Source: Candidatus Omnitrophota bacterium
Lineage (GTDB): Bacteria > Omnitrophota > Gorgyraeia > Gorgyraeales > Gorgyraeaceae
DNA length: 64,000 nt
Direction of reading: 5' to 3'
Assembly (NCBI GenBank): GCA_030649895.1
Contig: JAUSEX010000052.1
Span: 80,988 to 144,987 of the forward strand
The position numbers and the translations under genes are program-made. The first letter of the stretch is position 1; the number at the start of each line of letters is the position of its first letter. The notes under the pieces were generated by a model that worked only from the letters and a program-made list of their open reading frames with translations, made no database searches and had not been told where the DNA came from. This document shows positions 1 to 33,310 of this stretch, one piece after another.

Positions 1-1350
1 AATCTTTATAAAATCCGGCTCGAGATAAGGTGTGTAGGAAGGGCAAAATAAATTTATAGACCCAACATAATCGCTTATATTATTCATAAAAAGGGAAGAA
101 TAAAATAGATATGTGCATAGATCCCCTCTCGTAGAATAAGTCAAAGGGGCCACTAAATTTTTGATATATTCTTCCAGATACGCATAATACCTTTCCCTGT
201 TATAATATTTATCAATTAGGACGTCATTGTATCTCTGCATCCTTATAAATTCCTTTACATTAAAAGCTTTTATCTTCCTGAAATAAGAATAATAATTTTT
301 TGTATACAGTTCGCTTCCTGCAAAGCCCCCTACCTCAATATCAGCTATCTTGGATACAGAATCAAAATAGTAATATCTATGGTAAGAGCCGATCGTCTTT
401 ATCAGCTTAAAAAAATCTTCATTTTCCTTTTTCCATTTAATTACGCTTTCCATATCGCCGCATATATTTCTGTAATCTAAATTGAATTCTTTAACAATTT
501 TCTGCGTTATCGGAAGATCGCTGTATCTCCCTTTCTTCAAATAATCCTCGTGCTGCATAATTTCATTACCACATAAAAATTGTTTGTTCTTCTTTAATAG
601 TGTGGATATATTCATCCTGGTATCAAATCCGCCTGTAATCCCGCAAAATATATTTTCAACATTATCTAAAAACCTGAAATTGGACTCAAAAATACCTGCA
701 AGATTATCCAAAACCTCCTCAATATTTTTATACCTGCCAAATCTTATATCTTTATTTATATCATAATATGTTTCTATCTTAACCTCATTATTTCTAAAAC
801 TATAGATGCTTCCTGGCTTTAAATAAAGGACTTCCTTGAAAAGCGTATCATTGCTAAAGACATGGAAATGGTCATGACACGATAAATGCTGAGCCAGATA
901 ATCAAAATTTACAGAATATCTTACGTTATTATTCCGCGACAATAGATAATACGTATTTGAAACTTCTATGGTATTTCCTTGGCGCAGTAGATATACCGGG
1001 ATTGTCCTGAATCTATCTGTGATGACCATTAATTTGCCTCTAAAATATAAAACCAAAAAGAACTGGCCATGCGCCTTCAATAGTAAATCTTCCAGCTTAT
1101 CCCCTGAATTAAGGTCTTCATAGAATAGACTTACTGCGACCTTGTTGAAATTATCCCTGTAGATAAATACTCCGCCATTGGCTATGAAGTCCTCGCCTTT
1201 AGAATAATATGAAAGATGGTGGTTTTTAAAAAGTATCTTTGCCTGAAATCCGGCAATAAAAGGAATATTGCTGTATTCCGTAAAAAACCTTTTTATTTTT
1301 TCAAAACCTGAGTTTTCCTTGCCTGTATTAGATAAATAAAATATCTGCAT
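1..1350 (-). CDS. Asparagine synthetase (AsnB)-like amidotransferase, N-terminal 450 aa. The 3' end lies beyond window position 1. Not in the ORF track because it is partial.
   Basis: Manual translation from the ATG at 1348-1350: MQIFYLSNTGKENSGFEKIKRFFTEYSNIPFIAGFQ... It contains GQFFLVLYFRGKLMVITDRFRTIPVYL (compare the AsnB glutaminase-domain GMFAF...LARDRFGIKPLYY) and a PP-loop-like CGITGGFDT (compare SGGLDS). There is no Cys2 nucleophile. A GAGG RBS lies 6 nt upstream. Confidence 0.55.
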   Translation of the reverse strand, partial: MQIFYLSNTGKENSGFEKIKRFFTEYSNIPFIAGFQAKILFKNHHLSYYSKGEDFIANGGVFIYRDNFNKVAVSLFYEDLNSGDKLEDLLLKAHGQFFLVLYFRGKLMVITDRFRTIPVYLLRQGNTIEVSNTYYLLSRNNNVRYSVNFDYLAQHLSCHDHFHVFSNDTLFKEVLYLKPGSIYSFRNNEVKIETYYDINKDIRFGRYKNIEEVLDNLAGIFESNFRFLDNVENIFCGITGGFDTRMNISTLLKKNKQFLCGNEIMQHEDYLKKGRYSDLPITQKIVKEFNLDYRNICGDMESVIKWKKENEDFFKLIKTIGSYHRYYYFDSVSKIADIEVGGFAGSELYTKNYYSYFRKIKAFNVKEFIRMQRYNDVLIDKYYNRERYYAYLEEYIKNLVAPLTYSTRGDLCTYLFYSSLFMNNISDYVGSINLFCPSYTPYLEPDFIKI

Positions 1351-1377
1351 CGTAACCTCTTAATTTTTATAAAAACG

Positions 1378-3168
1378 CTATTTTTCTATTAACCGGCTTA
1401 ACTCCTCTACCCATATCTTCATCCAATCTTTCCTGGCATAAGCATATTGTCTGCAAAACTCTAACCGGGCATTCTGAATATCATTTTTCAGCCACCAGTC
1501 CAAAGGGGAAGCAAAAACGTCTTTTGCCTTTTTAGCAGCGCTCAATGGGTCTTTAAAAAGAATTCCGACCTCTCTTAATAAATCAAAATATCTCTCAACT
1601 TCCGGCCTCATCAAACGCACTTTGTGATCCCAGTAAAAAATAGAAGGAGTGTTTATGGTTAAGGCCTCAATAAAAGATGTATGGGAATTGTCTATAATTG
1701 TCAATCTTGCCTTCTTCATCCACTCAACCAGCCGTCCATTGGATATAACTTTAGCGCCTGGGCATATTTCTTTTAGTACATCTGACTCATTCCATCCATA
1801 ATCATAAGTATAGAGCCGGCAAAGAATTTTATTTCTCATCTTTTCCGGCAAAGCATCAAAAAATATCTTCTGATCCTCAAAATATTTTGACATGTCTTCA
1901 GGAAAAAGGCCGTTATCAAACCAGAAATGATATCTAGGTATGGTGTTACTAATAAATAAAATATTGTCAAGCCGCGGCGAATAAGTATCCTTTAATTTAG
2001 AAAGGTGAGGACTTGGCAAAGGTTTGGTTTTATTAGCATTTTTAGAACCCCAACCCCATGTATAAAAAATATCCTTTTCCAAAGATATGGCCTCATGCGG
2101 AACAATCAATGAGATCCCATACCCGCCTCCATGTTGAAAATCAACAAGACTGGCTCCAGCTGATGCTCTCTCCGCAGCGAAAAATTTGAATCTTTCGTTA
2201 AAATACCAGCCTATTGCAGATCCCGTTATTTTCACAGAATCTATGTTTTTTATTCCCTTGATACTTCCCCTGTAAAATTTATAATTTTCCATATAACACA
2301 TTGGTATGGCCTCTGGAAGAATCTTATAAAGCAGGAATTGAAACCTATCAGAAACTCCTTTTAATTCTATCTTGCTCCTGATTTCAGGAGAGTATTTGTT
2401 TTCTAAAATATTTTCTCTTATCGATTCGAAGAATATAAAGCGAACTGTTTTGAACCCTCCTTTTAATTTTAGCAAGGCCCTATCATAAGGAGATAAGTGG
2501 TACATGTCGCATAACACTATCGGACTTTTAAAAAATATATCTAATGATTCCAATAGGCCATTAAACAACTTTCTTTTCCAGCTAGACTTAATTGAATATT
2601 CATACATACTAGGTTTCTCTTTATATTCTTTTACTATGATATTAGGCCTACATACCTCATGAGCGATCAAACTGAATAGTTTAAGGTTATAATAATCCTC
2701 GTTTACCTTTTCAGCGTGAAAGTCATACGTATCAAAAGATGCCAGCATACCCTCTTCTATAGGAAGCGCATAAGTGTAAAAATCAGGGAATAGCTCAAAA
2801 ACCTTTTCTATCCTCTTATACCTATCATAAAAAACTTCTATAAAATACAAAAGCCATGGCCCTAAAAGGACCTGCCAGTATTTCAAAGGATAAGACTCTT
2901 GGTGGGCATTATTCAATGATTCAGATAATTGAGGAAGCAACTCTATATAAATCCTGCGGCAATAATCCGCGGCTTCTTTTATTTTAAATTCCGGCTTCCA
3001 AGGAGAATCCGCTATCTTATAATCCCTGCCTTTGATTAGTTCCATAGCTGTTTTTCCTGTCAAGCACCATGGCCCTAAAAAAATCTGCCTGGTTTCCAAA
3101 TCCCAAAAATCTACTATATTTGTCGTAGCCAAACAATAACGGTCTTTTATCAAATGTTTATTAACCAT
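1378..3168 (-). CDS. Hypothetical 596-aa protein; possibly an O-antigen-cluster transferase of the LIC12162-like kind
   Basis: Long ORF in operon context. The family assignment is from memory of the TIGR04331-type family only. Confidence 0.4.
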   Translation of the reverse strand: MVNKHLIKDRYCLATTNIVDFWDLETRQIFLGPWCLTGKTAMELIKGRDYKIADSPWKPEFKIKEAADYCRRIYIELLPQLSESLNNAHQESYPLKYWQVLLGPWLLYFIEVFYDRYKRIEKVFELFPDFYTYALPIEEGMLASFDTYDFHAEKVNEDYYNLKLFSLIAHEVCRPNIIVKEYKEKPSMYEYSIKSSWKRKLFNGLLESLDIFFKSPIVLCDMYHLSPYDRALLKLKGGFKTVRFIFFESIRENILENKYSPEIRSKIELKGVSDRFQFLLYKILPEAIPMCYMENYKFYRGSIKGIKNIDSVKITGSAIGWYFNERFKFFAAERASAGASLVDFQHGGGYGISLIVPHEAISLEKDIFYTWGWGSKNANKTKPLPSPHLSKLKDTYSPRLDNILFISNTIPRYHFWFDNGLFPEDMSKYFEDQKIFFDALPEKMRNKILCRLYTYDYGWNESDVLKEICPGAKVISNGRLVEWMKKARLTIIDNSHTSFIEALTINTPSIFYWDHKVRLMRPEVERYFDLLREVGILFKDPLSAAKKAKDVFASPLDWWLKNDIQNARLEFCRQYAYARKDWMKIWVEELSRLIEK

Positions 3169-3205
3169 GCGCGTCTTTATTTCAATAAAATTAACTGGAT
3201 GATTA

Positions 3206-4378
3206 TTAATTAGTTTTTTCCTTCTTTAAAACCAAAATAATATTGGTGGACTCTTCTTCCGATACCGGGGATTTTTTTTCTTGTTCAATAATTTCTGAAA
3301 TTATGCCATAAATAAATCTATTTAACAAAATTGAATTATAGTACCCCTTGTATTCAATGTCTTTAAAATAAGAGAAATATTTACCAAAAAATGCATAATC
3401 TACTATTTTAAATCCATGAGTTTTAACTATATTTTCCCATTCCTGTATAGAAAAAATGTTTTGGCCTATCGCATCATATTCAAAATAGCTTTTCATTGGA
3501 TTGCCTCTTGGGTTATCTTTTATAATCCTCCATTTCTGATAACGCTCTGACCATTTTGTAGAAAATATTTTTCTAATCCTGACTCCTGGAAGATTTTTAA
3601 AGGTATTTTTTGAAAATCCAGTCATTACTAAATGTCCTCCCGGTCTCAATATTCTGCTAATCTCTTTAAGGCATTCATCTATATGAATTATATGATCAAT
3701 AATATGAACCATAATTACAGAAGTAAAAATATTAGACCTAAACGGCAATGATTTAATGCTGCCTCCGATATAGTGCTTAATCAGTTTATGCATCTCTTCA
3801 CTAAGCTCGCTTTGAGCATTCAAAAAACTATCCATAAAGTATTCACATCCAAATGTAATAGACTCTATATTATTTTTAAAAATCATATTTGTTGTCCTGG
3901 AATCGGCACAGCCAATTTCCAAGGATGGCTCCATAATATATTTCCCCATCTTTTTAAACTGGGCTATCTCTCCAGCTTTTAGTATCAGATTATAATAATT
4001 TCTCCATCCATAACAAAGCGCTTTTTCAACTTCGTTGCAATATTTTTGATGTAACATATTTTTTAAGCCTAATTTATATGAAAAAAATATAAAATTAATA
4101 AAGTGTATTACCTCTGCAAAAAAAAGCCGTTGAAAAAAATTTAACGATAATTCTTTATGGGGGTTTTTAATTTTTCTTTTATTAGCCGGCTGGTTTAAAA
4201 ATCTATCACTATAAATCCCCATTTCTTCGTCTTTAATCAAAGCTGGTATACCAAATCTTATTTTAGGTTCAAAACCACAACTATTACAAACCATTTTATT
4301 GCTGCCATATTTAAATGATTCTTCAAAATGACACACAGGGCATCTTAAATAAGAATCAACGATTAATTGGTTCAACAT
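3206..4378 (-). CDS. Class I SAM-dependent methyltransferase with an N-terminal Trm112-like zinc ribbon
   Basis: N-terminal CPVC...CNSC. The MTase core has LEIGCADSRTT and ILRPGGHLVMT. Confidence 0.7.
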   Translation of the reverse strand: MLNQLIVDSYLRCPVCHFEESFKYGSNKMVCNSCGFEPKIRFGIPALIKDEEMGIYSDRFLNQPANKRKIKNPHKELSLNFFQRLFFAEVIHFINFIFFSYKLGLKNMLHQKYCNEVEKALCYGWRNYYNLILKAGEIAQFKKMGKYIMEPSLEIGCADSRTTNMIFKNNIESITFGCEYFMDSFLNAQSELSEEMHKLIKHYIGGSIKSLPFRSNIFTSVIMVHIIDHIIHIDECLKEISRILRPGGHLVMTGFSKNTFKNLPGVRIRKIFSTKWSERYQKWRIIKDNPRGNPMKSYFEYDAIGQNIFSIQEWENIVKTHGFKIVDYAFFGKYFSYFKDIEYKGYYNSILLNRFIYGIISEIIEQEKKSPVSEEESTNIILVLKKEKTN

Positions 4379-4405
4379 AGATTTATATCATCCAAATATT
4401 CAACG

Positions 4406-5059
4406 CTAATTCAAAATCCTTGCAGGCACTCCAACTGCCGTAACGTCTTCCGGAATATCATCTTTTACAACTGCATTTGCTCCTATCTTTGACCTTTTTC
4501 CTATCCTAATGCCATTTATTATAACCGCGCCGGGACCTACAAACACCTGATCATCTATCGTTGAACTATCAGCTATATGCACTCCGCCGTTTAAAGTAAT
4601 GAAATCCCCTAATTGACAATGGTGCCCGATAGAAACAGCATAGTTGAAAAGATTAAAATTGCCTATTTTGGCATACGGCGCAACTATCGTATTCTGAGCA
4701 AAAATATTACCATGCCCAATAACAGCTTTTTTTGATATAATCGCTGATGGGTGAATAATATTAGGAAATTCTACATTAGCACAAAGTTGTATAGCTTTAA
4801 TTAATCCAGCCCTACCGATAGGGTTTATAAATGATATGACGTTTATCTCTTCTTTATGACTCATTAACCATTTTGGCGTATCTAGCACCTTATAACCAAA
4901 AAATTCCTCACCTTGTTTTCCTAAATCTGAATCGATAAAACCAAGAATTTTGTAACTCCTATTATCTGGCCTGTGTTCATATTGTGCATCTAAAATTTCC
5001 TCAATATTGACCACATATTTGCCTACTCCTAATATGATATATTTATCCATTCGAACCAT
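4406..5059 (-). CDS. NeuD/PglD-family sugar N-acyltransferase (left-handed beta-helix)
   Basis: N-terminal Rossmann-like region (ILGVGKY...GFIDSD) followed by hexapeptide repeats. Confidence 0.7.
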   Translation of the reverse strand: MVRMDKYIILGVGKYVVNIEEILDAQYEHRPDNRSYKILGFIDSDLGKQGEEFFGYKVLDTPKWLMSHKEEINVISFINPIGRAGLIKAIQLCANVEFPNIIHPSAIISKKAVIGHGNIFAQNTIVAPYAKIGNFNLFNYAVSIGHHCQLGDFITLNGGVHIADSSTIDDQVFVGPGAVIINGIRIGKRSKIGANAVVKDDIPEDVTAVGVPARILN

Positions 5060-5903
5060 ACCCTTCAGCAGGTGTTTTTAAACCCAGCAGTTCTCGCGCC
5101 TCAATAGGTTTCATGACAGGACGGCCCATGGTCTCTGCGATACTTATTAAACGTTTCAGCAAATCTCTGTTTGTCGCTAGCCTTGTTCTATTATTATCAA
5201 ACCAGATATTATCTTCCAAACCAATCCTAGCCCCACAGCCTATTACTGCAGCCAGCATGTTAATCATCTGTTGATTATCGCCGACAGCCCCCAGGCTGTA
5301 AATAGAGTCCTGCGGCAATTCATTAATCATAATACCTACGGATAAGATATTCGCCTGAGCGCATGCAATATTGCCAAAAATTAAATTGAAATAATAGGGC
5401 GATTTTAACAGTCCTTTTTTAATCAAATACTTGGCATAATTAATCATGCCAAGGTCAAATGCCTCCAGTTCAGGCCTAATACCTTTTTCTTTCATCTTTT
5501 CAGCTAGAGCAATTATCATACTTGGTTCATTTATGCTCGCCTGGTGGTTAAAATTCACTGAACTAAGCGTTAGACTTGCCAGGTCGGGTTTAGCCAAACC
5601 TTTGAGTTCTAAAACAGCAGACCGCTTTTCAAACTCGCTGTATGTCCTTCCGCTGCACGTCGCACAAATTATCGTTTCGGGACGCTCTTTTCTTATGCCT
5701 GTTATTATTTTCTCGTATATCTCCGGTTCCCATGTGGGGTCTCCGTCTTTATCGCGTCCGTGAATATGAACCATTGTTACGCCGAGCTCACAACAGCCTA
5801 AAACATCATCAATAATCTCCTCTGGGCTGATAGGCACTCTTTGAGTGTCTTTTTTTAACGGTATCATCCCTGTAGGGACAAGATTTACTATTAATTTCTT
5901 CAC
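5043..5903 (-). CDS. BKACE family enzyme (3-keto-5-aminohexanoate cleavage enzyme-like, DUF849)
   Basis: VNLVPTGM...K...PISPEEIIDDVLGCCELGVTMVHIHGRD matches the Kce signature region. Confidence 0.7.
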   Translation of the reverse strand: MKKLIVNLVPTGMIPLKKDTQRVPISPEEIIDDVLGCCELGVTMVHIHGRDKDGDPTWEPEIYEKIITGIRKERPETIICATCSGRTYSEFEKRSAVLELKGLAKPDLASLTLSSVNFNHQASINEPSMIIALAEKMKEKGIRPELEAFDLGMINYAKYLIKKGLLKSPYYFNLIFGNIACAQANILSVGIMINELPQDSIYSLGAVGDNQQMINMLAAVIGCGARIGLEDNIWFDNNRTRLATNRDLLKRLISIAETMGRPVMKPIEARELLGLKTPAEGYGSNG

Positions 5904-5922
5904 TTATACCTCCTCCCATCAA

Positions 5923-6201
5923 CTACCTTTTAACGCTTGAAAAGAAAGCATTGAGTTCATCTGCTAGCTGAACATCTCTACCTTTGGCGTTAAACGGAGC
6001 TAATAATTCATAAAAGGCCTTGTATGGAATAATTAATCCGGTAATATAATCTTTCTCTTTTAAAACCTTTACTCCTGGCAAGCCAGCTATCTTCTTAAAA
6101 AAAGAACCTATTTGTTTAACATCATTAAGCGTGGCCTCCGGCAGCCTCCATTCAAATTCAATCTCAAATTCATCCTTTCTATATGCGCATCTTTTAATCA
6201 T
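5923..6201 (-). CDS. Hypothetical 92-aa protein
   Basis: ORF in operon context with a 4-nt overlap to the downstream gene. No recognisable motif. Confidence 0.4.
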   Translation of the reverse strand: MIKRCAYRKDEFEIEFEWRLPEATLNDVKQIGSFFKKIAGLPGVKVLKEKDYITGLIIPYKAFYELLAPFNAKGRDVQLADELNAFFSSVKR

Positions 6202-7211
6202 TTTTGCGTCTCCTGCGAAATTATGTCATAAATACTTATTGATTGGTCAGGTAATACAAGTCCATGGCGACAAATTGAACAGCCTTTACAATCCATCCTT
6301 CTTCCGGACTTGTGCAGTTCGCGCAATTCGTTTAGTTTATCGCCATGCCATAATGCGCGCAGAGAAATGTCATTTACATTTCCCAGGGTTATATCTTCAG
6401 CGTCCCAGCCGGTGCAACACTGCACCCTGCCATTATGAGCTACCATCAAGCGTTCCCAGGGATACTGACAAACAAAACCAGGAACTGGCCTGCGATTATT
6501 CAAATCCATGTATTCGTTCATCACCACGAGGTCAGAAACCTTACTTAAACATTCATAATATCCTAAAGGATCCATAGAAACAGCCGGCCAAATAGAACAA
6601 ACGCGTATCTGCGGGTTAACTAACCCCAAACTGTCCCTTTTTTCCTTAAGATACTTGAGTTTATTAAGGCTTTCTTCAAATTTAGCGGGAAAGCGAATTC
6701 GATTATAAACTTCTCCCATGCCATCAAAAGAACAGCCTAAATAAGTCAGACCTTTTTCAATAAGAAAATCCGCCACTTCCTTTGTCACTAAGAACGTATT
6801 TGTCAGAAAAGAGACATTTGAAATCCTCTTGCATGCATATTCAACCATATCAAAAATCCTGGGATGAGTTAATGACTCGCCGCGCCAGCTAAGTCTCAGC
6901 GAATAGACTCCGTTTTCTTTGCATTCGTCAACTATTTTAGTGAAAACGTTCCAATTCATATCTCCCAGGTCTCTGAATTTTTTGCGAAAACACATTGGGC
7001 AGTTCATATTGCAATTGCTTGTAGTCTCTATGTCGACATGGAGCGGAAAATTAGATACAAAATAATTTTTAGAGTACTCATACCACTGCAAACGGTTAAT
7101 AAAGGTCTCCAAAAAATCGCCATGACTGCCATAGAACCTCCAAAAACGGCTTGGTGAGTCATAAACGCGCTGGTCTTTATTCGTATTCATGCTTATTCTC
7201 TCCTTCACCAT
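6198..7211 (-). CDS. Radical SAM protein with a SPASM/twitch-like C-terminal Cys cluster
   Basis: CNMNCPMC (CxxxCxxC). C-terminal CCTGW...CKGCSIC. Confidence 0.7.
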   Translation of the reverse strand: MVKERISMNTNKDQRVYDSPSRFWRFYGSHGDFLETFINRLQWYEYSKNYFVSNFPLHVDIETTSNCNMNCPMCFRKKFRDLGDMNWNVFTKIVDECKENGVYSLRLSWRGESLTHPRIFDMVEYACKRISNVSFLTNTFLVTKEVADFLIEKGLTYLGCSFDGMGEVYNRIRFPAKFEESLNKLKYLKEKRDSLGLVNPQIRVCSIWPAVSMDPLGYYECLSKVSDLVVMNEYMDLNNRRPVPGFVCQYPWERLMVAHNGRVQCCTGWDAEDITLGNVNDISLRALWHGDKLNELRELHKSGRRMDCKGCSICRHGLVLPDQSISIYDIISQETQK

Positions 7212-8261
7212 CTACTTGAAACAATCCCAGATAATCGGCTCTCCTTTTAAAATACGCCTTTGCGCCCTTATCCCATAAATATGCTGCAACAATCCAGGCT
7301 CTATTCCTCCTTCCGGCCTCAAAATGTCTACATTTTTTTCTGTAATCATTTCTCCTTCTTTGATATCTTTTACGGCATATATGGATTTTTTAAAAACCTG
7401 CCGTATCCCTTTCTCGGCATCTGTAACATCCTTATAAGGCAAACCCATCGCCTTTTCAGTCTCACGGATACCCTTAATTATCAATTCCATTTCATAAGGC
7501 ATCGTTGAAAAGAAATTATCAGGGCCAAGGGCTTCTCTTTTCAGTGTAAAATGTTTCTCTATAACACATGCCCCCATAGCAACAGCAGCAATAGGTATTG
7601 AAGTCGTCATCGTATGGTCGCTTAAACCAACAGGCACATCAAAAGTTTTCATTAATGTCTGCATCGTCCTTAAATTCATATCTTCAGGCCTTGCAGGATA
7701 TTGCGAAACGCAATGTAATAATATAGCATCGCTATTGCCTTCTTCTTTTATCGCCCTGATTGCGCTATCAATCTCTGAAAGATAGGACACCCCGGAAGAG
7801 ATTATCATTGGTTTTTTAAGCCGGGCTATATATTTTAAGAGAGGAATATTAGTCAAATCATCGGAACCAAGCTTATAGGCAGGAGGTCTGGCAATCTTTT
7901 CCAACAGGTCTACATCTTTAAAATGGCTCGGGGTAGAAAAAGCGGTTATATCTTTTTTCGCAGCATATAAAAATAACTCTTTTTGAAAATCCTCGGTCTG
8001 TTTCTCCTCGCTTTCCATAAATTCCTTATATTGGTCTATCATCCCTCTGCCATCTTTCAAATGCGTTCCTCTAATCACAGTTGTTTTGGCATGGAATGTT
8101 TGAAATTTAACGCAATCTGCTCCGATAGCCGCTGCTGAATCAACCAACCTTTTTGCACCATTTATATCATCAAAGTTCACGCCTGCTTCCAAAATAATAT
8201 AACAGGGACAATCCTTGCCTATTCTTCTTTTATTAATGACAATGGTTCCTCTCATAGACAC
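7212..8261 (-). CDS. NeuB-family nonulosonic acid synthase (N-acetylneuraminate / legionaminate / pseudaminate synthase-like)
   Basis: CYIILEAGVNFDDINGAKRLVDSAAAIGADCVKFQTF. C-terminal SAF-like region. Confidence 0.85.
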   Translation of the reverse strand: MSMRGTIVINKRRIGKDCPCYIILEAGVNFDDINGAKRLVDSAAAIGADCVKFQTFHAKTTVIRGTHLKDGRGMIDQYKEFMESEEKQTEDFQKELFLYAAKKDITAFSTPSHFKDVDLLEKIARPPAYKLGSDDLTNIPLLKYIARLKKPMIISSGVSYLSEIDSAIRAIKEEGNSDAILLHCVSQYPARPEDMNLRTMQTLMKTFDVPVGLSDHTMTTSIPIAAVAMGACVIEKHFTLKREALGPDNFFSTMPYEMELIIKGIRETEKAMGLPYKDVTDAEKGIRQVFKKSIYAVKDIKEGEMITEKNVDILRPEGGIEPGLLQHIYGIRAQRRILKGEPIIWDCFK

Positions 8262-9013
8262 CTCTTCCTTTTAAGAAATCTGGCCAGCTTTTTATTGCCA
8301 TAAATAATATTATCAGCGTCATGATAATATTCCAAAATAATATAATTGGCGCTGGATTTTTTCAAAACAAAATCTAATAATTTATACTCTTTTTCATCAG
8401 GCAGCTCATGGGAATCTTTGCCTAAAAAAGAGCGCGATAAATGGATTTCAATAACCTTTGATAAAGGCATCCTTTCTAAATAATCATGGATATCGATAGA
8501 CAAATTGCTGCAGGTAGCTTCAACATGCCCTATATCCAGTGTTAAATATACATTAAACTCTTTTACAAATGCATCTACAAACTCTGGAACGCATACAATT
8601 TCATAGGCGCCGGAAAGATGATAATCAAGATTTTCTACAGATATAATGCCCTTAAAATATTTTCGTATATTATTAATCTTTTTATCTGCGATTTTCAGAA
8701 TTTGTCCTTCCGTCAAAATATGGCTTTTGGCGACATATCCATTGTGAAAACAACCAACCTTGCGACAAGATGGCCCTAAATCAAATGACAACAGGCCTGC
8801 ACGAGATTGTATCTTTTTTAAAAATCTACAGTTATTAATTAATGCGTCGAATTCGTCGTTAATAAAGCCATTTGCATGAAATAAAACATCCTTTCCCTCA
8901 AAATCCTTATCCAGGTCTTTCTCTTTTCGGACAGACACAGCTCCTGCAATCGGAAGTAAATCGATTTTTACCTGTTCAAAATATTGCGATATAGGCAATC
9001 CTATTTTCATCAT
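8252..9013 (-). CDS. Hypothetical 253-aa protein; possibly a xylose-isomerase-like / DUF692-like TIM barrel
   Basis: Weak motif resemblance only (VENLDYH, LDIGHVE, EIHLS, HELPDEKEY). Confidence 0.3.
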   Translation of the reverse strand: MMKIGLPISQYFEQVKIDLLPIAGAVSVRKEKDLDKDFEGKDVLFHANGFINDEFDALINNCRFLKKIQSRAGLLSFDLGPSCRKVGCFHNGYVAKSHILTEGQILKIADKKINNIRKYFKGIISVENLDYHLSGAYEIVCVPEFVDAFVKEFNVYLTLDIGHVEATCSNLSIDIHDYLERMPLSKVIEIHLSRSFLGKDSHELPDEKEYKLLDFVLKKSSANYIILEYYHDADNIIYGNKKLARFLKRKRCL

Positions 9014-10539
9014 CTATAGTTTTTAACTACATCTTCGGATATCTTACGCAAATACTTTCGTTTATTTTCTAAACCAAGCTCTTTGTATACTGCATCCAGG
9101 ACAATATAGGAATAGATGCGGCTTGGAACATGCTTTATCCCATACTTTTGTTTAAATCTTTTTTCATAAACAGGGTAATTTTCATAAATATTTTTTCCAA
9201 GTTTAAAAAGACTGGCGTTAGAAGGCCATATATAATCAGATTTTTTAATAGATATGCTATTACTAATGGAGTATTCTTTTGTAATCCGTTTCAGAGAATC
9301 ATCATAATAAAATTCACTACCTGGTATATCCATAACTAATAAGGTGGTGCTTATCTCTACATTCTTCAGCATCTGCTTCACGCATAAATCAGCTGTCTCA
9401 ATTAAATCTTCCTTTGAGATACAAGGAGGCAACAGAATAATATAAATCAGAGGGGTAATCCCTGCCTCTATAGTTACATCAATAGACCGAATTATTTGCT
9501 GCCGCGTAACCCCCTTTTTTAGATAAGCCAAGACTCTATTGGAAAATGATTCTACGCCATACATAATCATTCGGAATCCCGCTTTTTTCATTAAGCCAAG
9601 TATCTCTTTTTTGGGTCCGGAAAAATCATCTGGCCTGCCCTGGCAAATAAAACTCAGGTCCTTTTCCAGCCTGCCTTTTTCCTTTAGAGCTATTATTCTT
9701 AAACACAGTTCCTCAAAGCATTTAAAATCCAAAAAAAGATTATCGTCGTCAAAAATAATAGTTTCAACTTCGCTCCATGTATCAGTAATATTAAGAATGA
9801 AATGAATAATATCTTCCACAGGTAATATATAGAAATGCCCTTGCCCCCTGAATTTGCCGCTATAAGAATAAGAAATAAAATTGGTTGATGAGCAAAATTT
9901 ACAACGAAGAGGACAGAAATTGGAAAACAGAACCCTGATAGCTCTGATTTCTGTCAGGTCAGGATCATTATACAAGGATGCATTATGTCTCCAATATCGA
10001 TTATACGGGACATCAACAACACCATATGCTTCGTAAATTTCCTTAAAATCGCGTAATGTTAGTTGTTTTCCGTATCCGCTAAAAAATATCTTGTCTTTGT
10101 CTCTCCAGTATATCGACCTAATGCTGCTGAATTCCCTTTTGCCTTCAACAATCGCTTCTAAAATTTTCAACAGGGTCTTTTCTCCTTCGCCTAAAACAAT
10201 TATATCGAAGAGGGCATATTCAAAGGACTTTTTCCCGAGAAACGACACCTCTGGTCCCCCTGCAATAAAAATTGCATCAGGAAACCTCAATTTAAAATAA
10301 TTAAATAGCAGCAGATCGTTTTCTAGGGTTAAATGCAATAAACTAAAACCTATCACATCATACATTTCTTTTATCTCTTTATAATTATCAATATTAGGGT
10401 CTAAAATATCGATACGGATCCGCTTTAGTTTCTTTTCAATATAAAACTTCATCCTGTATAATCCAAAAGAAGGAGCCAGAAACGAATCCCCTGAATTGTC
10501 CCGGCCTTTAAAAGGCCCTATCAATAAAACCCTTAACAT
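9010..10539 (-). CDS. B12-binding-domain radical SAM protein (class B)
   Basis: N-terminal Rossmann-like B12-binding region. CPLRCKFCSS (CxxxCxxC). Confidence 0.75.
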   Translation of the reverse strand: MLRVLLIGPFKGRDNSGDSFLAPSFGLYRMKFYIEKKLKRIRIDILDPNIDNYKEIKEMYDVIGFSLLHLTLENDLLLFNYFKLRFPDAIFIAGGPEVSFLGKKSFEYALFDIIVLGEGEKTLLKILEAIVEGKREFSSIRSIYWRDKDKIFFSGYGKQLTLRDFKEIYEAYGVVDVPYNRYWRHNASLYNDPDLTEIRAIRVLFSNFCPLRCKFCSSTNFISYSYSGKFRGQGHFYILPVEDIIHFILNITDTWSEVETIIFDDDNLFLDFKCFEELCLRIIALKEKGRLEKDLSFICQGRPDDFSGPKKEILGLMKKAGFRMIMYGVESFSNRVLAYLKKGVTRQQIIRSIDVTIEAGITPLIYIILLPPCISKEDLIETADLCVKQMLKNVEISTTLLVMDIPGSEFYYDDSLKRITKEYSISNSISIKKSDYIWPSNASLFKLGKNIYENYPVYEKRFKQKYGIKHVPSRIYSYIVLDAVYKELGLENKRKYLRKISEDVVKNYR

Positions 10540-10555
10540 ATTTTATCCTGCAAGG

Positions 10556-11272
10556 TTAAAGAAATACCTTTTTCATTAGCGGCACATCAATTCCATTGAT
10601 AATAGAAAAACTCTTATCGCCATAATTAAATAAAAGGTCTATTATTGACATGCAAGGCACAAATGGTTCATAAAGCTGTTTGTAAACTGGGTGATAAAAC
10701 TCCTGATAAGTTATTTTAATTCCTGCTTCTTCAAAATTTTCTAGATTCAAATAATCTTTCCCGGAAACTCCCGAGATATACGTTTCTGCTTTTAATTCCT
10801 TGCATATATTCAATATCAAATCACCTTTATGACCACTAGCTTCGAGAGAAGAGGAGAATACAAACCCTGTTTTTATATTTAAGGCTTGCATCAAATATCT
10901 AATAAACTCCAGGTTCATGTCCAAAAGAAAATTAAAATCTTTCAGATAAATCTCCTGCAAGCTATCAAAATAATGATTAAAATATTTAGCCTTAGAATAG
11001 GCGGTAGATATACTTTTAATATTCCTTTTTTTCCACCTAGGGTCATCCCTGGAAATCTTAACATCTTTAATCAGCGAACTATTCCTCGGTTCTTTGACTA
11101 CCGGAACAGAGACATACTGCGTTCCTGAGCATGTCCTTATCCGATTTCTATTTTGAAAATATCTTCTCCTGTATTGAACATCATCTAAAATCACATAAAC
11201 ATCTGCTATTGCTATTTTATGAAAGAATCCCAGCCACGGCAAATGCTCTGGCTGATGAATGGTTATCTTCAT
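10556..11272 (-). CDS. WbqC-like family protein
   Basis: MKITIHQPEHLPWLGFFHKI, the characteristic WbqC N-terminus. Confidence 0.7.
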   Translation of the reverse strand: MKITIHQPEHLPWLGFFHKIAIADVYVILDDVQYRRRYFQNRNRIRTCSGTQYVSVPVVKEPRNSSLIKDVKISRDDPRWKKRNIKSISTAYSKAKYFNHYFDSLQEIYLKDFNFLLDMNLEFIRYLMQALNIKTGFVFSSSLEASGHKGDLILNICKELKAETYISGVSGKDYLNLENFEEAGIKITYQEFYHPVYKQLYEPFVPCMSIIDLLFNYGDKSFSIINGIDVPLMKKVFL

Positions 11273-11274
11273 GA

Positions 11275-11901
11275 TTATTCTTTATGCCGCGAACTTTCTA
11301 ACAATATCTTTTCTGCTGCCCAAAAATCAAACTCATCATCTATCTCTACGTTTTCCTGACGGCTAATTATTTTCCTGCCAAGCTTTTTGCCATATTGATC
11401 GCCTTGCTTAATAAGGCTTGCCTTAATTACATACACATTTCCATCGTCATAAAAAAATCCGTTAATATCCTGCCTTCTTAACTGGTTTTTTCCGTATTCA
11501 ATGTATTTACACATAAAACCTGTGGCAAGAGAATCGTAATTATTATCCTTAAATTCTTTTATACATTCATCTACAAGCCCTTCGTTTCTTATGGGGGAGG
11601 TGGCTTGAAGAAGAACTACTATATCGCAAGGAATTTGTTTTATCACATGCTGAAGAACGCTCAAGGTGCTGGCTTCATCACTTGCCAGTTCAGGCGGACG
11701 ATAAAGAGCTTCTGTGTCATAACCCTTTGCAACCTTTGCTATACCCTTGTCTTCAGTAGAGATGATATATCTATCTAGCATGGTTGCCTTCTTCGCTGAT
11801 TCTATAGTCCACGCGATTAAAGGCCTGCCAGCAATCAATTTGATGTTCTTTTTAGGTATTCCTTTACTTCCACCCCGCGCCGGGGTAATACCAAGTATCA
11901 T
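11275..11901 (-). CDS. Acylneuraminate cytidylyltransferase family (CMP-nonulosonic acid synthetase)
   Basis: ILGITPARGGSKGIPKKNIKLIAGRPLIAW. Confidence 0.85.
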   Translation of the reverse strand: MILGITPARGGSKGIPKKNIKLIAGRPLIAWTIESAKKATMLDRYIISTEDKGIAKVAKGYDTEALYRPPELASDEASTLSVLQHVIKQIPCDIVVLLQATSPIRNEGLVDECIKEFKDNNYDSLATGFMCKYIEYGKNQLRRQDINGFFYDDGNVYVIKASLIKQGDQYGKKLGRKIISRQENVEIDDEFDFWAAEKILLESSRHKE

Positions 11902-11922
11902 CTTATCCCCATTTCTGTCCTT

Positions 11923-13278
11923 TTATATGTAATCTCCAAATCCAGCTGCCGTCTCTGTTAACATTTCCCTTGCTTTCAATAAATCATCATTTGACATATC
12001 GCTTATATTTACATAAGGCCGAACATGCATAGCTCCTAAGTTCATCGCATATCTATGTTCATCTCGAATAAAACTGCTTTTTATTGCTTCGTCATAAAGG
12101 ATGGTTCCAGGAAACAGTGTAAGAATATTTATCGCGGCGTTGTTTAACTTTAATTGCCTGATAAACCGTTCTGTTTCTTTAACCGTACCCCAGTTTTCAC
12201 CAGGTCCGCCCACAATAAATGTACAATGAATGTCAATCAGATTCTTTATAGACTTAAGATTTAAAATAGCCTTTTTTATATCAAGATTTTTATCATAACG
12301 ATTGAGCATATCCTGGCTTCCAGATTCAATTCCGAAAGAAATATCAAAAAGACCTACTTCTGCCATTCTCTCCACCATTTCCATGGAAATTCTATCTGCT
12401 CTTCCCTGAAACCGCCATTTGAATTCTCCAGGATACTTGTTCTTTAATAGGGAAATAAATTCTTCTATGCTTCTTGGACTATTTAAGAAATTATCATCAA
12501 CAAAGTTAAACCTCTCAATACCATAGTTCTCTTTGACATAAAGCATGTGTTTTATTATTAATTCTGGCGAGTAGCAAGTAATCCTTTTCCCAAAAGTTAA
12601 TTTACAAAATCTACACCTCCCATAACATCCTCTTGAAGCAGATATCTCCCAGCATCTTCCAGAGTTTTTTAAATAACTGATGTACTTTTCTATGGGGAAA
12701 GCCTCATAAAAAGGAAGTAGCGCTGCGTTTAAATTCATCATTCTGTCTCGTTCGCCGGTAAAAATAATTTTTCCTCCTTCTTTAAAATAAATTCCCCTCA
12801 CGCTTCTTACTTGCTCTTTGATAAAATTTTTTTCAATAACATCTAGCAATTCAACAATAGTTAATTCTCCTTCGCCTTTGACGACAAAATCAATTAATGT
12901 ATGCGAAATTAATAACTCAGGTATGGTAGTAGCCATTGGCCCGCCAATAATTATAAAAATGTTTCTGTTTATTTTTTTAATCTTTTTTGCAATTTCTATG
13001 CAGAATCGATAACTATAATTGCCTAAAAATCCTGACAATAGCACTACGTCTGGCAATAACTTTTCGACTCTTTTTAAAAAGCCGCCAGTCGTACCGTTAA
13101 CATAACTGTCGTAGACATCATAATCCCATCTTTTTTCTTTTAGCACTGCGGCAATAATCCCAAGACCTATAGGAAAATGCAGCGTAGAAAACCTTTGCAC
13201 AAGAGAGCGCTTTTGATAGCCCTCAAAATGAGGCTTTAAATTAGCTATCATAATTCTTAATGTTTTTAAGCTCTCCAT
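11923..13278 (-). CDS. B12-binding-domain radical SAM protein (class B)
   Basis: B12-binding-like N-terminus. SRGCYGRCRFCK. Confidence 0.75.
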   Translation of the reverse strand: MESLKTLRIMIANLKPHFEGYQKRSLVQRFSTLHFPIGLGIIAAVLKEKRWDYDVYDSYVNGTTGGFLKRVEKLLPDVVLLSGFLGNYSYRFCIEIAKKIKKINRNIFIIIGGPMATTIPELLISHTLIDFVVKGEGELTIVELLDVIEKNFIKEQVRSVRGIYFKEGGKIIFTGERDRMMNLNAALLPFYEAFPIEKYISYLKNSGRCWEISASRGCYGRCRFCKLTFGKRITCYSPELIIKHMLYVKENYGIERFNFVDDNFLNSPRSIEEFISLLKNKYPGEFKWRFQGRADRISMEMVERMAEVGLFDISFGIESGSQDMLNRYDKNLDIKKAILNLKSIKNLIDIHCTFIVGGPGENWGTVKETERFIRQLKLNNAAINILTLFPGTILYDEAIKSSFIRDEHRYAMNLGAMHVRPYVNISDMSNDDLLKAREMLTETAAGFGDYI

Positions 13279-13934
13279 TTCTTCCTTATAACCATAAATG
13301 CCTCTGCGTATTTAAATCCAATCTCAATCCCTCTTTTTTTAGCTAAAACCTTTAAGGCCTCTTTTGAACGCGGATGAGGGTAAGCCCTTTTTTCTGTTTC
13401 ATAACATTTAAATGCCTTTATTTTCTTATCAATATATTTTGCGATATCCACATAATAGTTTGGCAAAAATATATTTTCAGGCAATGGCGGAGATTGGTCT
13501 GTAGAGGAAGGGACTTCATACATGTAGATGCTATTGATGAATGGCGTAGCTATCGACCTCAAAACAACCCTAGCCGCGTCAAACACTGCCCTGTGGTCTT
13601 GGTTATTGTCATTCAAGAAGGGGATATAGACAACGGATGGCTTTATTTTATTTACATATTTCTCAAGTAAAATTATGATATCCTGAATAGATGCGTCTAG
13701 TCGTTCATCGTTTAAATCAAAAAATACAAGTTCTCTGTAACCAAGCGCATCTTTTGCCTTAATGGCGTGCTGCCTTTCAATCTCATTCTTGGCTCTGTCA
13801 AAATGATGATTATATACCCTGTTAGCTATGAAAGAGACGAAAACATTATCTTTTTCCCCTATATGCCTAGCTATTGTCCCCCCGCATCCAAGAACCTCAT
13901 CGTCCATATGCGGAGCTATTATCAATATATTCAT
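13266..13934 (-). CDS. PIG-L / LmbE family deacetylase
   Basis: IIAPHMDDEVLGCGGTIARH. Confidence 0.8.
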   Translation of the reverse strand: MNILIIAPHMDDEVLGCGGTIARHIGEKDNVFVSFIANRVYNHHFDRAKNEIERQHAIKAKDALGYRELVFFDLNDERLDASIQDIIILLEKYVNKIKPSVVYIPFLNDNNQDHRAVFDAARVVLRSIATPFINSIYMYEVPSSTDQSPPLPENIFLPNYYVDIAKYIDKKIKAFKCYETEKRAYPHPRSKEALKVLAKKRGIEIGFKYAEAFMVIRKKWRA

Positions 13935-13937
13935 AGG

Positions 13938-14882
13938 TTATCTCTCCAGAAGTTCGTCTATCTTCTTCTTATCTAAATTCCTACTGGATTCTCTTTCTTT
14001 ATACCACTCTATATATTTGGATAATCCTTTTTCAAAGCTAACCTTAGGCCGCCATCCCAATTCCTTTTTTGCCAACTCGCATGAAACTTCTTTGCCGGAA
14101 AAGTCTCCCGGCCTGCCAGGGATATGCTCAATCCTGACATTGCCTAAAATCTTCTGGATGCTTTCTGCTATCTGCTTGATTGTAATCTTTTCATTCCCAT
14201 CCAGATTATAAATTTTATTCCTGGCTGTTGATTTCAAGGCCATGACATTGCCTTCAGCAAGGTCTTCCACATATATGAATTTTCTGAATTGCGAGCCATC
14301 TCCCGCGATTGTAATAGGTTTTCCATTTAACGCCTTCTCTACGAATATAGGTATGACCGCTCCGTCCCTTGCCCTTGGGCCGTATGGTATGCCATATCTC
14401 AAAATAGTTACGTCCAGGCCGTATAATTTACTATAGGTCTGGCAGTAATATTCTCCAGCCAATTTAGTAGCCGTGTAAAAATGAGAAGGCGCATGAAGCG
14501 GAGTTGACTCAGTAACCCTGTCTTCACTTGCTTCGCTGTAAACCCAAGTAGTGCTTCCATAAATCATTTTATTTACTTTTGAGCATCGCACAGCCTCAAG
14601 TACATTTATAGTCCCTCTCACGTTTATTGATTCCGCGTAATAAGGGTCCTCAAAAACATCCTTGACGTCTGCCACCGCGGCAAGATGCATTACCGCGTCT
14701 ACACCGCTCATCGCAAAACCCAAAGCCGCCCTATCCAAAATGCTTCCTTGATAAAATTCTATGTCTTTTCTAAAAGTGGGTATGACAACATCATAAACCC
14801 TGACCTCTATTGCCTTATCTCTCAGCTTATCGACCACATGCGAACCAATAAATCCCGAGCCTCCAGTAACCAAAACCTTCAT
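13938..14882 (-). CDS. NAD-dependent epimerase/dehydratase (SDR). Start moved to the internal MKVLVTGG ATG, which forms an ATGA overlap with the upstream stop. The track ORF extends to 14918.
   Basis: MKVLVTGGSGFIGSHVV, YxxxK. Reverse-complement of 14879-14882 reads ATGA. Confidence 0.75.
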   Translation of the reverse strand: MKVLVTGGSGFIGSHVVDKLRDKAIEVRVYDVVIPTFRKDIEFYQGSILDRAALGFAMSGVDAVMHLAAVADVKDVFEDPYYAESINVRGTINVLEAVRCSKVNKMIYGSTTWVYSEASEDRVTESTPLHAPSHFYTATKLAGEYYCQTYSKLYGLDVTILRYGIPYGPRARDGAVIPIFVEKALNGKPITIAGDGSQFRKFIYVEDLAEGNVMALKSTARNKIYNLDGNEKITIKQIAESIQKILGNVRIEHIPGRPGDFSGKEVSCELAKKELGWRPKVSFEKGLSKYIEWYKERESSRNLDKKKIDELLER

Positions 14883-15853
14883 ATTAAATCCCCCTTGTAG
14901 TATAACGGTACGCACCAATGATTCTTCGCTACCCAGTCTGTATCAGGCAGTTCATACGCCTTTTTAAGAATCTTATGGCATGGCGCGTCATATACCTTGC
15001 CTGTAGAATTTTCTATCGGTTCAAAGACTATGTATTTATAATACCCTGAGACCATGCCTTCGGGTAAAACAACTCTCTTTTTAAATTTAGAATCAAGATG
15101 TTTTTTCACGTAACTGTTCTTCCATTCCGTAATCTCATCCAAACTATCTATCTGAGCGCAGCCGATAGCCGCCGTAAATTCGTTCATCCTGAAATTCAGG
15201 CCTTTGACATTGTATTCGAATTTTCCATAGTTCCTGAACTTGCGGGCAAAATCCGCAAGATCTTTGTTTTTGGTTACCAGCATCCCGCCTTCACCAGTAG
15301 TGATGGTTTTGGTCGCGTAAAACGAATAAACCCCCGCGTCTCCGAATATGCCGGGCCTCCTGCCGTTCCAGGACGCGCCATGGCTATGGGCGCAATCTTC
15401 AAGCAGAATAATGCCTTTATCTTTACAGTACGACGCGATTTCGTTTACCTGAAACGCTATATGGCCTCCTATATGGACTAACCAGACCGCGGAAGGCCTG
15501 TATTTTTTTATTTTTTCTTTCAGGTCATCAAAATTCACGCATAAATCAAATTTATTGCAATCTACAAATTCCACATTACATTCGAGATGCATGTTAACCA
15601 ACGGCGTAGCCATAAACGTATTAGATGGGCAGAGGATAACTTTTTTTCTCAAGTTATAATATTCCAATGCCGCCAGGCTAGCCCCTGCCCAGCTGCTAAA
15701 AGCTACAGCATAGGCATTATTCCATTTTGCCCATTTTTCTTCAAAGAGTTCTGTAAATTTTCCTTCTGACCATCTATTTTCTTTCATTATCTCTTCGAAA
15801 TAAGAAAATATCTTATCCTTATCTCTTTTATCGAATCCGATTGTAAATTTCAT
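14879..15853 (-). CDS. DegT/DnrJ/EryC1/StrS family sugar aminotransferase
   Basis: KTITTGEGGMLVT PLP-lysine region. Confidence 0.8.
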   Translation of the reverse strand: MKFTIGFDKRDKDKIFSYFEEIMKENRWSEGKFTELFEEKWAKWNNAYAVAFSSWAGASLAALEYYNLRKKVILCPSNTFMATPLVNMHLECNVEFVDCNKFDLCVNFDDLKEKIKKYRPSAVWLVHIGGHIAFQVNEIASYCKDKGIILLEDCAHSHGASWNGRRPGIFGDAGVYSFYATKTITTGEGGMLVTKNKDLADFARKFRNYGKFEYNVKGLNFRMNEFTAAIGCAQIDSLDEITEWKNSYVKKHLDSKFKKRVVLPEGMVSGYYKYIVFEPIENSTGKVYDAPCHKILKKAYELPDTDWVAKNHWCVPLYYKGDLI

Positions 15854-26993: not shown

Positions 26994-27725
26994 TTATTTA
27001 ACCCTCTTCAATTTAAAAATGGCTTCGGCTACATAAAAATCTAACTCATTATCTATATCAATAGAAGACATAGAATCAGTAATCACCACTCCTCTTTTCT
27101 GTTTTGGGCCAGGCAGACATAATCTTGCTGTATCCATATTATTAAGAATATACTCTACCCTACCTGCAAATGCTGCACCTGTGCTTCTATATAAAGTTTC
27201 TTCGGCCTGCCTATGAGTTATTGCACGGTCATAACCATCTATAAAAGCAAATTCAGGTATGCTATCTTTGATTCTCAACGTCCATTGCGAAGGATGGTCG
27301 ACTTTGCAAACTGTAAAAACAGCGTCCAGCTCTTCCTCTACTATCTTTTTTATTACTGAATAGATATCCGCTATCTTTGTCAGAGGCGAATTGGCCTGCA
27401 GAACCAATACATAATCAAATCTTTCACCCGCCTTTTCCATCCGTTTTATTGCGTCAGCAATAACCAATATCAAAGGCGCACTATTAGTCGCAAGTTTTTT
27501 ATCCCTCAAAAAAGGCGTTTCAGCGCCATATTTTCTGGCAATCCCGGCTATAGCCTCATCTTCGGTAGAAACAATTACCCTGTCTATCTCTTTAATGCTA
27601 AGCGCCTTCTCTATACTATGCGCTATCATGGGTTTGCCGCCTATTACCTTGACATTTTTGCCGGGTAATCCCACAGACCCCATCCTGGCCGGAATAATAG
27701 AAAGTACCCTTTTGTTATTTATCAT
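26994..27725 (-). CDS. Acylneuraminate cytidylyltransferase family (second copy)
   Basis: VLSIIPARMGSVGLPGKNVKVIGGKPMIAHSI. Confidence 0.85.
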   Translation of the reverse strand: MINNKRVLSIIPARMGSVGLPGKNVKVIGGKPMIAHSIEKALSIKEIDRVIVSTEDEAIAGIARKYGAETPFLRDKKLATNSAPLILVIADAIKRMEKAGERFDYVLVLQANSPLTKIADIYSVIKKIVEEELDAVFTVCKVDHPSQWTLRIKDSIPEFAFIDGYDRAITHRQAEETLYRSTGAAFAGRVEYILNNMDTARLCLPGPKQKRGVVITDSMSSIDIDNELDFYVAEAIFKLKRVK

Positions 27726-28509: not shown

Positions 28510-28516
28510 ATCCCTA

Positions 28517-31595: not shown

Positions 31596-31767
31596 ACAGT
31601 TTGTTTTTCAACCAGGATATAATTTGAAGATATTTAAAATCTCTCTTAATGATAATTTTTGCGTTAGAATCAACTATCTTATCTTAAGCCATATTTTAGC
31701 ATGGCTTGTTTTACGGGTTATTATCTCTAACGCTTTGAAAAATATTTGCAATTTTTATCTTGACCTA

Positions 31768-33308: not shown

Positions 33309-33310
33309 AT

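Follow-up and report, generated by a model that had tools for sequence, protein, structure and literature searches.

A BKACE-family gene coupled to a sugar N-acyltransferase gene in an Omnitrophota surface-glycan island: a candidate route to a non-acetyl N-acyl donor

Why should a gene of the BKACE family, whose known members sit in catabolic contexts, lie in a biosynthetic one, beside acyltransferases in glycan loci? The question is raised by a 64,000-nucleotide stretch of a Candidatus Omnitrophota genome (GenBank assembly GCA_030649895.1, contig JAUSEX010000052.1, positions 80,988 to 144,987; hereafter, the window), in which a BKACE gene overlaps the gene for a hexapeptide-type N-acyltransferase a short distance from a gene for a NeuB-family nonulosonic acid synthase (Table 1). 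In the literature we found no paper tying BKACE or DUF849 to glycan synthesis (polysaccharide, O-antigen, or glycosylation). An earlier note on this DNA had proposed that these genes, together with those for an AsnB-like protein, a 92-residue protein, and a SPASM radical SAM enzyme, form an unusual tailoring block that includes an in-cluster route to a non-acetyl N-acyl donor. Such a route is also our best reading, because the linkage of BKACE to an N-acyltransferase extends far beyond this genome. With confidence that slightly outweighs our doubt, we interpret window positions 4406-5903 as a two-gene cassette for acyl supply and transfer: BKACE would produce an acyl-CoA other than acetyl-CoA, and its acyl group would be attached to the amino nitrogen of a 4-amino-4,6-dideoxyhexose that, in this genome, is probably a precursor of a nonulosonic acid.

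The linkage became apparent in a scan of one genome per prokaryotic species, which returned 353 relatives of the BKACE enzyme; the best 80 loci (55-72% identity), drawn from very many bacterial phyla and from archaea, were examined. An acyltransferase of either the GNAT or the hexapeptide type was present in 64 of these 80 loci, as determined with phmmer. A BKACE gene was called in 75 loci (the window and 74 ortholog loci); clustering of their neighbors showed an acyltransferase no more than two genes from BKACE in 54, mostly at position +1 and on the same strand. Immediately beside BKACE, a GNAT protein of about 215 residues was encoded in 28 loci and a longer GNAT in 6-8, whereas 16-20 loci had a PglD-type hexapeptide transferase there. 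Other frequent neighbors were CapK/PaaK-like AMP-binding enzymes (16 loci), DegT aminotransferases (15), GT4 glycosyltransferases (15), dehydratases (8-11), and WbqC (9), and 38 of the 80 loci contained at least one sugar-pathway gene (DegT, WbqC, GT4, or dehydratase). What is conserved is the combination of BKACE with an N-acyltransferase that uses acyl-CoA, in many cases within amino-sugar loci. Because GNAT and hexapeptide enzymes are structurally unrelated families that both use acyl-CoA, their shared place beside BKACE points to acyl-CoA as the common currency, and the simplest explanation is that BKACE supplies the donor. The GNAT partner family had no solved relative by sequence. Long open reading frames (ORFs), such as those in L006, L024, and L081, considered as possible BKACE-acyltransferase fusions, look like start-codon artefacts of the ORF caller and were set aside. 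BKACE was not found in 60 relatives of this genome, 12 of the same genus among them, consistent with horizontal exchange of the module within a hypervariable island.

The BKACE protein matches PF05853 from end to end (model positions 1-274 of 274; 257.7 bits, against a Pfam gathering score of 24.8). When its active site was aligned to those of Kce (2y7d) and 3no5, residues H46 and H48 (HxH), E147 (equivalent to Kce E143), R226, E230, and D231 aligned with the Kce residues whose roles we used as the test, i.e., the Zn ligands His46, His48, and Glu230 and the catalytic Glu143, Arg226, and Asp231. All six are 100% conserved in 75 orthologs, in which many further pocket positions are invariant as well; the enzyme that the earlier note had included in its route thus has its catalytic and Zn-binding residues intact. 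Position 14, by comparison, is Ile here and in 95% of the BKACE subfamily, whereas the 5-amino group of the Kce substrate is bound by Glu14 of that enzyme; exchange of Glu14 for Trp accompanies the substrate change in the triacetate acetoacetate-lyase CsTAL (PMC10470551). Further, the protein falls below the cut-offs of all four NCBIfam equivalogs (Kce, 3-oxoadipate, KAL-fused, and dioxohexanoate). It scored 216.9 bits on the Kce equivalog NF052387, for which the cut-off is 382, and, lacking Glu14 as well, lies outside Kce sensu stricto. It shares with Kce-type enzymes the full-length fold family, the Zn ligands (HxH plus Glu), the positions of the catalytic Glu, Arg, and Asp, and presumably the reaction type (β-keto acid + acetyl-CoA to acyl-CoA + acetoacetate), but its identity to them, as read from the alignment, is only about 30-35%. 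Given Ile14, the equivalog scores, and the retained catalytic residues, the protein is, as judged from its sequence, an intact BKACE of an uncharacterized specificity group, for which a cationic substrate is unlikely.

The coupled acyltransferase matched TIGR03570 (NeuD/PglB/VioB sugar acetyltransferases) at 158.0 bits, just under the cut-off of 160.8, and Hexapep at an E value of 5e-13. Its nearest solved relatives (4m9c, PerB, PglB, VioB, and PglD) all N-acylate nucleoside diphosphate (NDP)-4-amino-4,6-dideoxyhexoses. With N-acetyltransferases of the PglD/PerB/VioB/LegH type it has in common the left-handed β-helix family, and a DegT aminotransferase and a 4,6-dehydratase are also encoded in the operon here; it differs from them in its coupling to BKACE and in its slightly low TIGR03570 score. 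The 17-nt overlap between the two genes, as previously reported, holds if the first ATG (5059) of the acyltransferase gene is used; from the second ATG (5050) the overlap is 8 nt (ATGGATAA), which is the arrangement in the ortholog locus L004. Coupling of the acyltransferase to BKACE suggests that its donor is probably not acetyl-CoA.

We postulate the following order of events, in which the direction of flow, the acceptor sugar, the involvement of NeuB, and the identity of the acyl group are what we infer: (i) BKACE would convert a small, free β-keto acid and acetyl-CoA into acetoacetate and a non-acetyl acyl-CoA, by the generic reaction of its family; (ii) the coupled hexapeptide transferase would move the acyl group onto the 4-amino group of an NDP-4-amino-4,6-dideoxyhexose; and (iii) the acylated sugar would most likely enter the adjacent NeuB-family synthase, yielding a nonulosonic acid with an unusual N-acyl group, which the cytidylyltransferase encoded upstream would activate with cytidine monophosphate (CMP) and the methyltransferase encoded downstream of the acyltransferase could methylate. 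The acceptor is proposed because the kin of the acyltransferase use such sugars and because the 4,6-dehydratase and DegT aminotransferase of the same operon would make one. BKACEs release acyl-CoA and acetoacetate, and their only entry channel is occupied by acetyl-CoA (PMC11961710); the keto acid should therefore be small, which favors a free substrate over one borne on a nucleotide sugar. D-Glyceryl-CoA is the proposed product of one BKACE (PMC6365646), and acetoacetyl-CoA has been shown to be a product (PMC10470551). Precedent would allow a hydroxyacyl group, glyceroyl or 3-hydroxybutyryl for example; a cationic aminoacyl is unlikely. Amino sugars that receive a non-acetyl group are made by AntA-D in the anthrose pathway of Bacillus anthracis, by the modified-viosamine island of Pseudomonas syringae, and by FdhC, which uses 3-hydroxybutanoyl-CoA. 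The cassette resembles these pathways in combining one or more dedicated donor-making enzymes with an N-acyltransferase in a sugar locus, but their donors come from enoyl-CoA hydratase or from ketoacyl synthase/ketoreductase/acyl carrier protein (KAS/KR/ACP) chemistry, and none of them is known to include a BKACE.

Several observations weigh against a donor-supplying cassette. Most simply, the hexapeptide transferase could be the N-acetyltransferase of its pathway, an ordinary equivalent of LegH or PglD, with BKACE either having a side role (acetoacetate/acetyl-CoA recycling or production) or hitch-hiking in a mobile island. In favor of this, all of the nearest solved relatives of the transferase are N-acetyltransferases, and the island, which includes an IS110 transposase, is specific to the strain. 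In addition, the pair is found outside sugar loci in some Flavobacteriaceae: in several members of this family the BKACE-GNAT pair neighbors Nramp and other, unrelated genes, and sugar genes are not obvious there, which suggests that the acceptor need not always be a sugar. Hitch-hiking, however, does not resemble a pattern in which an acyltransferase accompanies BKACE in four-fifths of the loci across bacteria and archaea, and the canonical nonulosonic acid module of the island has a separate small hexapeptide transferase of its own; we regard an ordinary N-acetyltransferase as a rather unlikely explanation. The flavobacterial operons in L022, L026, L034, L036, and L037 (Flagellimonas/Allomuricauda and relatives; around position 10000) consist of genes for a 147-residue protein of no known family, BKACE, and the GNAT.

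A further difficulty is the substrate, as the genes beside BKACE include none for a β-keto acid source in the window, and none that recurs consistently across the 80 loci. This absence would suit a different order of steps, with BKACE acting after the transferase on a sugar-bound β-dicarbonyl N-acyl group (e.g., an N-malonyl group undergoing a Claisen reaction with acetyl-CoA to give N-acetoacetyl), such that no free acyl-CoA is made; the tight translational coupling and constant adjacency of the two genes suit consecutive steps as well as they suit supply. An amide carbonyl, however, is a poor partner for the Claisen-type chemistry of BKACEs, and the active site is near-invariant whether the neighbor is a GNAT or a hexapeptide transferase. 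Further, because acetyl-CoA fills the sole channel and the keto acid must enter first (PMC11961710), there is little room for a substrate borne on a nucleotide sugar. Action after the transferase is thus improbable, and supply of a free donor by BKACE is the order we retain.

The remaining points concern the nonulosonic acid. The synthase encoded nearest to BKACE has NeuB and SAF domains and scored below both relevant equivalog cut-offs (NeuB, 305 bits against 399.65; PseI, 295.6 bits against 340.25). A NeuB gene was near BKACE in only one of the 80 loci (L074, which also has a CMP-transferase gene). Thus, of the BKACE, NeuD, and NeuB trio whose co-occurrence the earlier note had envisaged, the pair of BKACE and acyltransferase recurs and the full trio does not; the nonulosonic acid context is rare among BKACE loci, is an addition made by this window, and is a link particular to this genome, drawn from adjacency. 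The NeuB module on the BKACE side also has no hydrolysing 2-epimerase of its own, the sole one found being in the other module. That second module looks canonical, with genes for a cytidylyltransferase, a PseB/LegB-type dehydratase, a polysaccharide deacetylase, a DegT aminotransferase, a small hexapeptide transferase, a NeuC/LegG-type 2-epimerase, and the other NeuB, followed by an ABC exporter.

Between BKACE and NeuB lie the genes for the 92-residue protein and the radical SAM enzyme; the ORF of the former overlaps the stop codon of the latter by 4 nt (ATGA) and ends 19 nt before BKACE. The radical SAM enzyme has an N-terminal extension of about 55 residues, and its cysteines C67, C71, and C74 (CxxxCxxC), C248, C266, C311, and C314 are invariant in 11 homologs. 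Its auxiliary domain, among solved structures, is closest to that of BtrN (E value 1.6e-17 over residues 246-330). The 92-residue protein had no Pfam match (E value up to 10) and no NCBIfam match. A full HMMER pass over 1.84 billion representatives identified about 10 relatives of 92-109 residues, conserved along their whole length, and AlphaFold (AF2) with the family alignment predicted a compact β-β-α-α-β-β-α-α fold at a mean confidence (pLDDT) of 91. As to a candidate identity as a PqqD-like recognition element (RRE) of ribosomally synthesized and post-translationally modified peptide (RiPP) systems, a Foldseek search of the pdb database gave no match at an E value of 0.001 or better, and VIA-align (48,161 chains) gave a best Z of 3.9, with weak winged-helix rows only; the ESM Atlas gave no usable match.

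Modeling of the radical SAM enzyme with the 92-residue protein gave a score of 0.89 (0.85-0.90 in three runs), compared with 0.00 for the best of three controls; this mark is reached by 58 of 80 solved complexes and by 2 of 110 mismatched pairs. At least 90% of contacts are common to the runs, the partner pLDDT is 87 or higher, and the small protein is seated on enzyme residues 20-55, N-terminal to the CxxxCxxC motif (67-74). The 92-residue protein is therefore predicted to be a bound subunit of a BtrN-like SPASM radical SAM enzyme, forming a unit separate from the acyl cassette. Because BtrN is a radical SAM sugar dehydrogenase, we propose a two-subunit sugar-modifying enzyme. Compared with BtrN (2-deoxy-scyllo-inosamine dehydrogenase; PDB 4M7S/4M7T), the enzyme has the same radical SAM core and a related auxiliary Fe-S domain, and both act, or are placed, in carbohydrate pathways; BtrN, however, works alone, whereas the enzyme here is longer, with an N-terminal extension predicted to hold the separate subunit.

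The earlier note had drawn this pair of proteins into the acyl route, an assignment we abandon: the small protein is predicted to bind the radical SAM enzyme, and a hidden Markov model (HMM) detected it in only one of the 80 BKACE loci. In that locus, L004, the gene order is the same as here (a 66%-identical radical SAM gene, the 92-residue protein, and BKACE). Neither 60 relatives, nor 400 genomes of the phylum, nor a metagenome scan yielded the protein; radical SAM homologs elsewhere in the phylum share only 30-39% identity with the enzyme here and come from genomes without the small protein. Were the block kept here and in L004 (radical SAM enzyme, 92-residue subunit, BKACE, and acyltransferase) nonetheless a single pathway, the two-subunit BtrN-like dehydrogenase would make a β-keto acid from a β-hydroxy acid, BKACE would convert it without ATP into an unusual acyl-CoA, and the acyl group would end on N7 of a new nonulosonic acid; we hold out little hope for this extended scheme.

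Alternatively, the 92-residue protein might be the precursor peptide of a RiPP cluster embedded in the sugar island and served by the SPASM, DUF692/MNIO-like, and B12-binding radical SAM enzymes. These enzyme types are all characteristic of RiPP maturation, and there are weak NCBIfam matches to ApyH, ApyD, and other maturases. Every such match is far below its cut-off, however, and the same enzyme types recur many times in this and related sugar islands. The small protein, for its part, is conserved over its full length and is predicted to form a compact α/β domain that docks as a folded subunit. We therefore rejected a RiPP cluster, which seems to us highly improbable, in favor of a subunit of the radical SAM enzyme.

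The AsnB-like gene at the window's edge was previously described as partial and lacking Cys2, and both points were borne out: it runs off the window, and its product begins MQIFYL, whereas the two genuine AsnB paralogs of this genome begin MCGICG. Lack of Cys2 excludes the use of glutamine in the manner of AsnB. Where the PP-loop (SGGxDS) of the two paralogs reads LSGGIDSS, the protein has ITGGFDTR. No Pfam match was obtained even at an E value of 10, so the likeness to AsnB is drawn from a profile-profile match and from weak NCBIfam matches. In the NCBIfam scan (E value up to 0.01), only three AsnB-type models responded, at 4e-4 to 8e-4, far below their cut-offs; hhalign matched an eight-homolog profile to the two genuine paralogs (97%, E value 1e-10, columns 78-363), the aligned region beginning at the end of the N-terminal domain and extending through the PP-loop. 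One distant family member matches PF00733 at 1.8e-5. A single-sequence AlphaFold model reached a pLDDT of 36, and the family profile had no significant match in the PDB, the best AsnB-type row being 7ylz (E value 0.97).

The protein is thus probably a remote AsnB homolog, but the acetamidino-forming role suggested for it is not supported. The NCBIfam scan gave no match to an N-acetyl-sugar amidotransferase of the PseA/WbuX type (TIGR03573), and orthologs occurred in none of the 80 BKACE loci. In genome G291 (L114, G291:C1:44000-63900; 10000-13270), a 47%-identical ortholog is again directly followed by the ortholog of the Wzx-like flippase (29%), within an island that has NeuB and B12 radical SAM genes and lacks BKACE. 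The AsnB-like and flippase genes look like a conserved pair; the former is part of the island but lies outside the acyl cassette, and it probably encodes an ATP-dependent amide-forming enzyme that travels with a flippase. AsnB-family enzymes without a working glutaminase domain include β-lactam synthetase, the lasso-peptide cyclases, and the hydroxyamidotransferase TsnB9 (PDB 7YLZ). The protein here lacks Cys2, as they do, and is probably a remote homolog of theirs in the PP-loop region and the final part of the N-terminal domain; it differs in being too divergent for the Pfam Asn_synthase model and in accompanying a Wzx-like flippase.

The genome is bacterial (1.68 Mb in 59 contigs; about 98% complete): its 16S gene fits the bacterial model, and for two of its proteins the nearest named homologs are from Candidatus Omnitrophota. 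The genes of the window, almost all on the minus strand with minimal spacing, together constitute one very large surface-glycan island, which continues on the contig beyond the window. ORF calling with Pfam and NCBIfam searches recovered every gene listed in the earlier note, with the positions and families given there, all tightly packed on the minus strand. The location of two genuine AsnB genes on the same contig outside the window suggests that the island spans about 100 kb. Megablast of positions 1-7300 against plasmids gave no match. The island contains two NeuB paralogs, three CMP-sugar-type cytidylyltransferases, several methyltransferases and GT4 glycosyltransferases, an ABC exporter, a Wza-type export protein, and heptose-pathway genes. 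Its many radical SAM genes suggest heavy radical C-H chemistry (e.g., C-methylation) on surface sugars.

Upstream of NeuB, an operon-like continuation of the same run encodes a DUF692/MNIO-like TIM barrel, a B12 radical SAM enzyme, WbqC, the CMP-sugar-type cytidylyltransferase, a second B12 radical SAM enzyme, a PIG-L deacetylase, a 4,6-dehydratase/epimerase, and the DegT aminotransferase. The DegT gene shares 40 nt with the next gene, and the C-terminal domain of its product may be divergent or truncated. The DUF692/MNIO-like protein (253 residues) gave partial matches only (PF05114, E value 9e-12; ApyH, E value 9e-14, far below the cut-off), and the position of its gene between those for a B12 radical SAM enzyme and NeuB is odd for the family. 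Downstream of the cassette, the LIC12162-family protein may act as a glycosyl or nonulosonate transferase. At its far side, the island encodes a SIS-domain (GmhA-like) protein, an HldE-like kinase/adenylyltransferase, and a 955-residue Wza/SLBB polysaccharide export protein.

Table 1. Features of the window and its surroundings (window positions unless stated otherwise; aa, amino acids).
Feature	Position	Strand	Remarks
Probable AsnB-superfamily protein, remote, without Cys2	1-1350	-	N-terminal 450 aa of a 601-aa protein running off the window (L002:14533-16338)
LIC12162-family transferase of O-antigen loci	1378-3168	-	TIGR04331, E 8e-118, 394.6 bits (cut-off 225)
Class I SAM-dependent methyltransferase	3206-4378	-	390 aa; PF08241, E 3e-11; directly downstream of acyltransferase
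PglD/PerB/VioB-type left-handed β-helix (hexapeptide) N-acyltransferase	4406-5059	-	
BKACE-family Zn enzyme	5043-5903	-	286 aa; GTG start, GGAGG before start; PF05853, E 1.6e-76
92-aa protein, rare unnamed family	5923-6201	-	Predicted partner subunit of radical SAM enzyme
Radical SAM enzyme with SPASM/twitch auxiliary-cluster domain	6198-7211	-	PF04055, E 2.5e-16; PF13186, E 2e-10; one of three SPASM radical SAM genes in the window
NeuB-family nonulosonic acid synthase	7212-8261	-	PF03102, E 7e-76; one of two NeuB paralogs in the window
Upstream run	8252-15853	-	Operon-like continuation; Pfam and NCBIfam matches
DUF692/MNIO-like TIM barrel	8252-9013	-	
B12-binding radical SAM enzymes (four)	9010-10539, 11923-13278, 25659-26990, 40519-41952	-	
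CMP-sugar-type cytidylyltransferase	11275-11901		
4,6-Dehydratase/epimerase	13938-14918		
DegT aminotransferase	14879-15853	-	Short, 324 aa; model positions 4-247 of 360 only
Second, canonical-looking nonulosonic acid module	26994-35508	-	
Small hexapeptide transferase of that module	32892-33308		
Hydrolysing 2-epimerase of that module	33311-34453		
ABC exporter	35498-37267		
Plain radical SAM gene	39437-40507		
IS110-family transposase	42677-43708	-	Within the island
SPASM radical SAM gene	45346-46413		Among the three in the window
Far side of the island	46406-53294	-	
Fourth SPASM radical SAM gene	L002:11883-12884		On the contig, just outside the window
Genuine Cys2-bearing AsnB paralogs (two)	contig 33726-34871, 63424-64575		Same contig, outside the window; 647 and 631 aa, 49% identical

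Non-acetyl N-acyl groups shape how the surface sugars of bacteria and archaea are recognized by phages, predators, and immune systems, and for most such groups the enzymes that make the donor are not known. If our reading is correct, a BKACE feeding a sugar N-acyltransferase would amount to ATP-free donor synthesis and would be the first biosynthetic role for a family known so far from catabolism. To the recurrent pair this window adds a nonulosonic acid context, a predicted partner subunit for a radical SAM enzyme, and a distinction between the cassette and the AsnB-like gene. Independently of the cassette, the radical SAM enzyme, predicted to have two subunits, offers a second lead. Reconstituting the pair once in vitro would allow hundreds of loci to be annotated, because the two genes are found together in many phyla.

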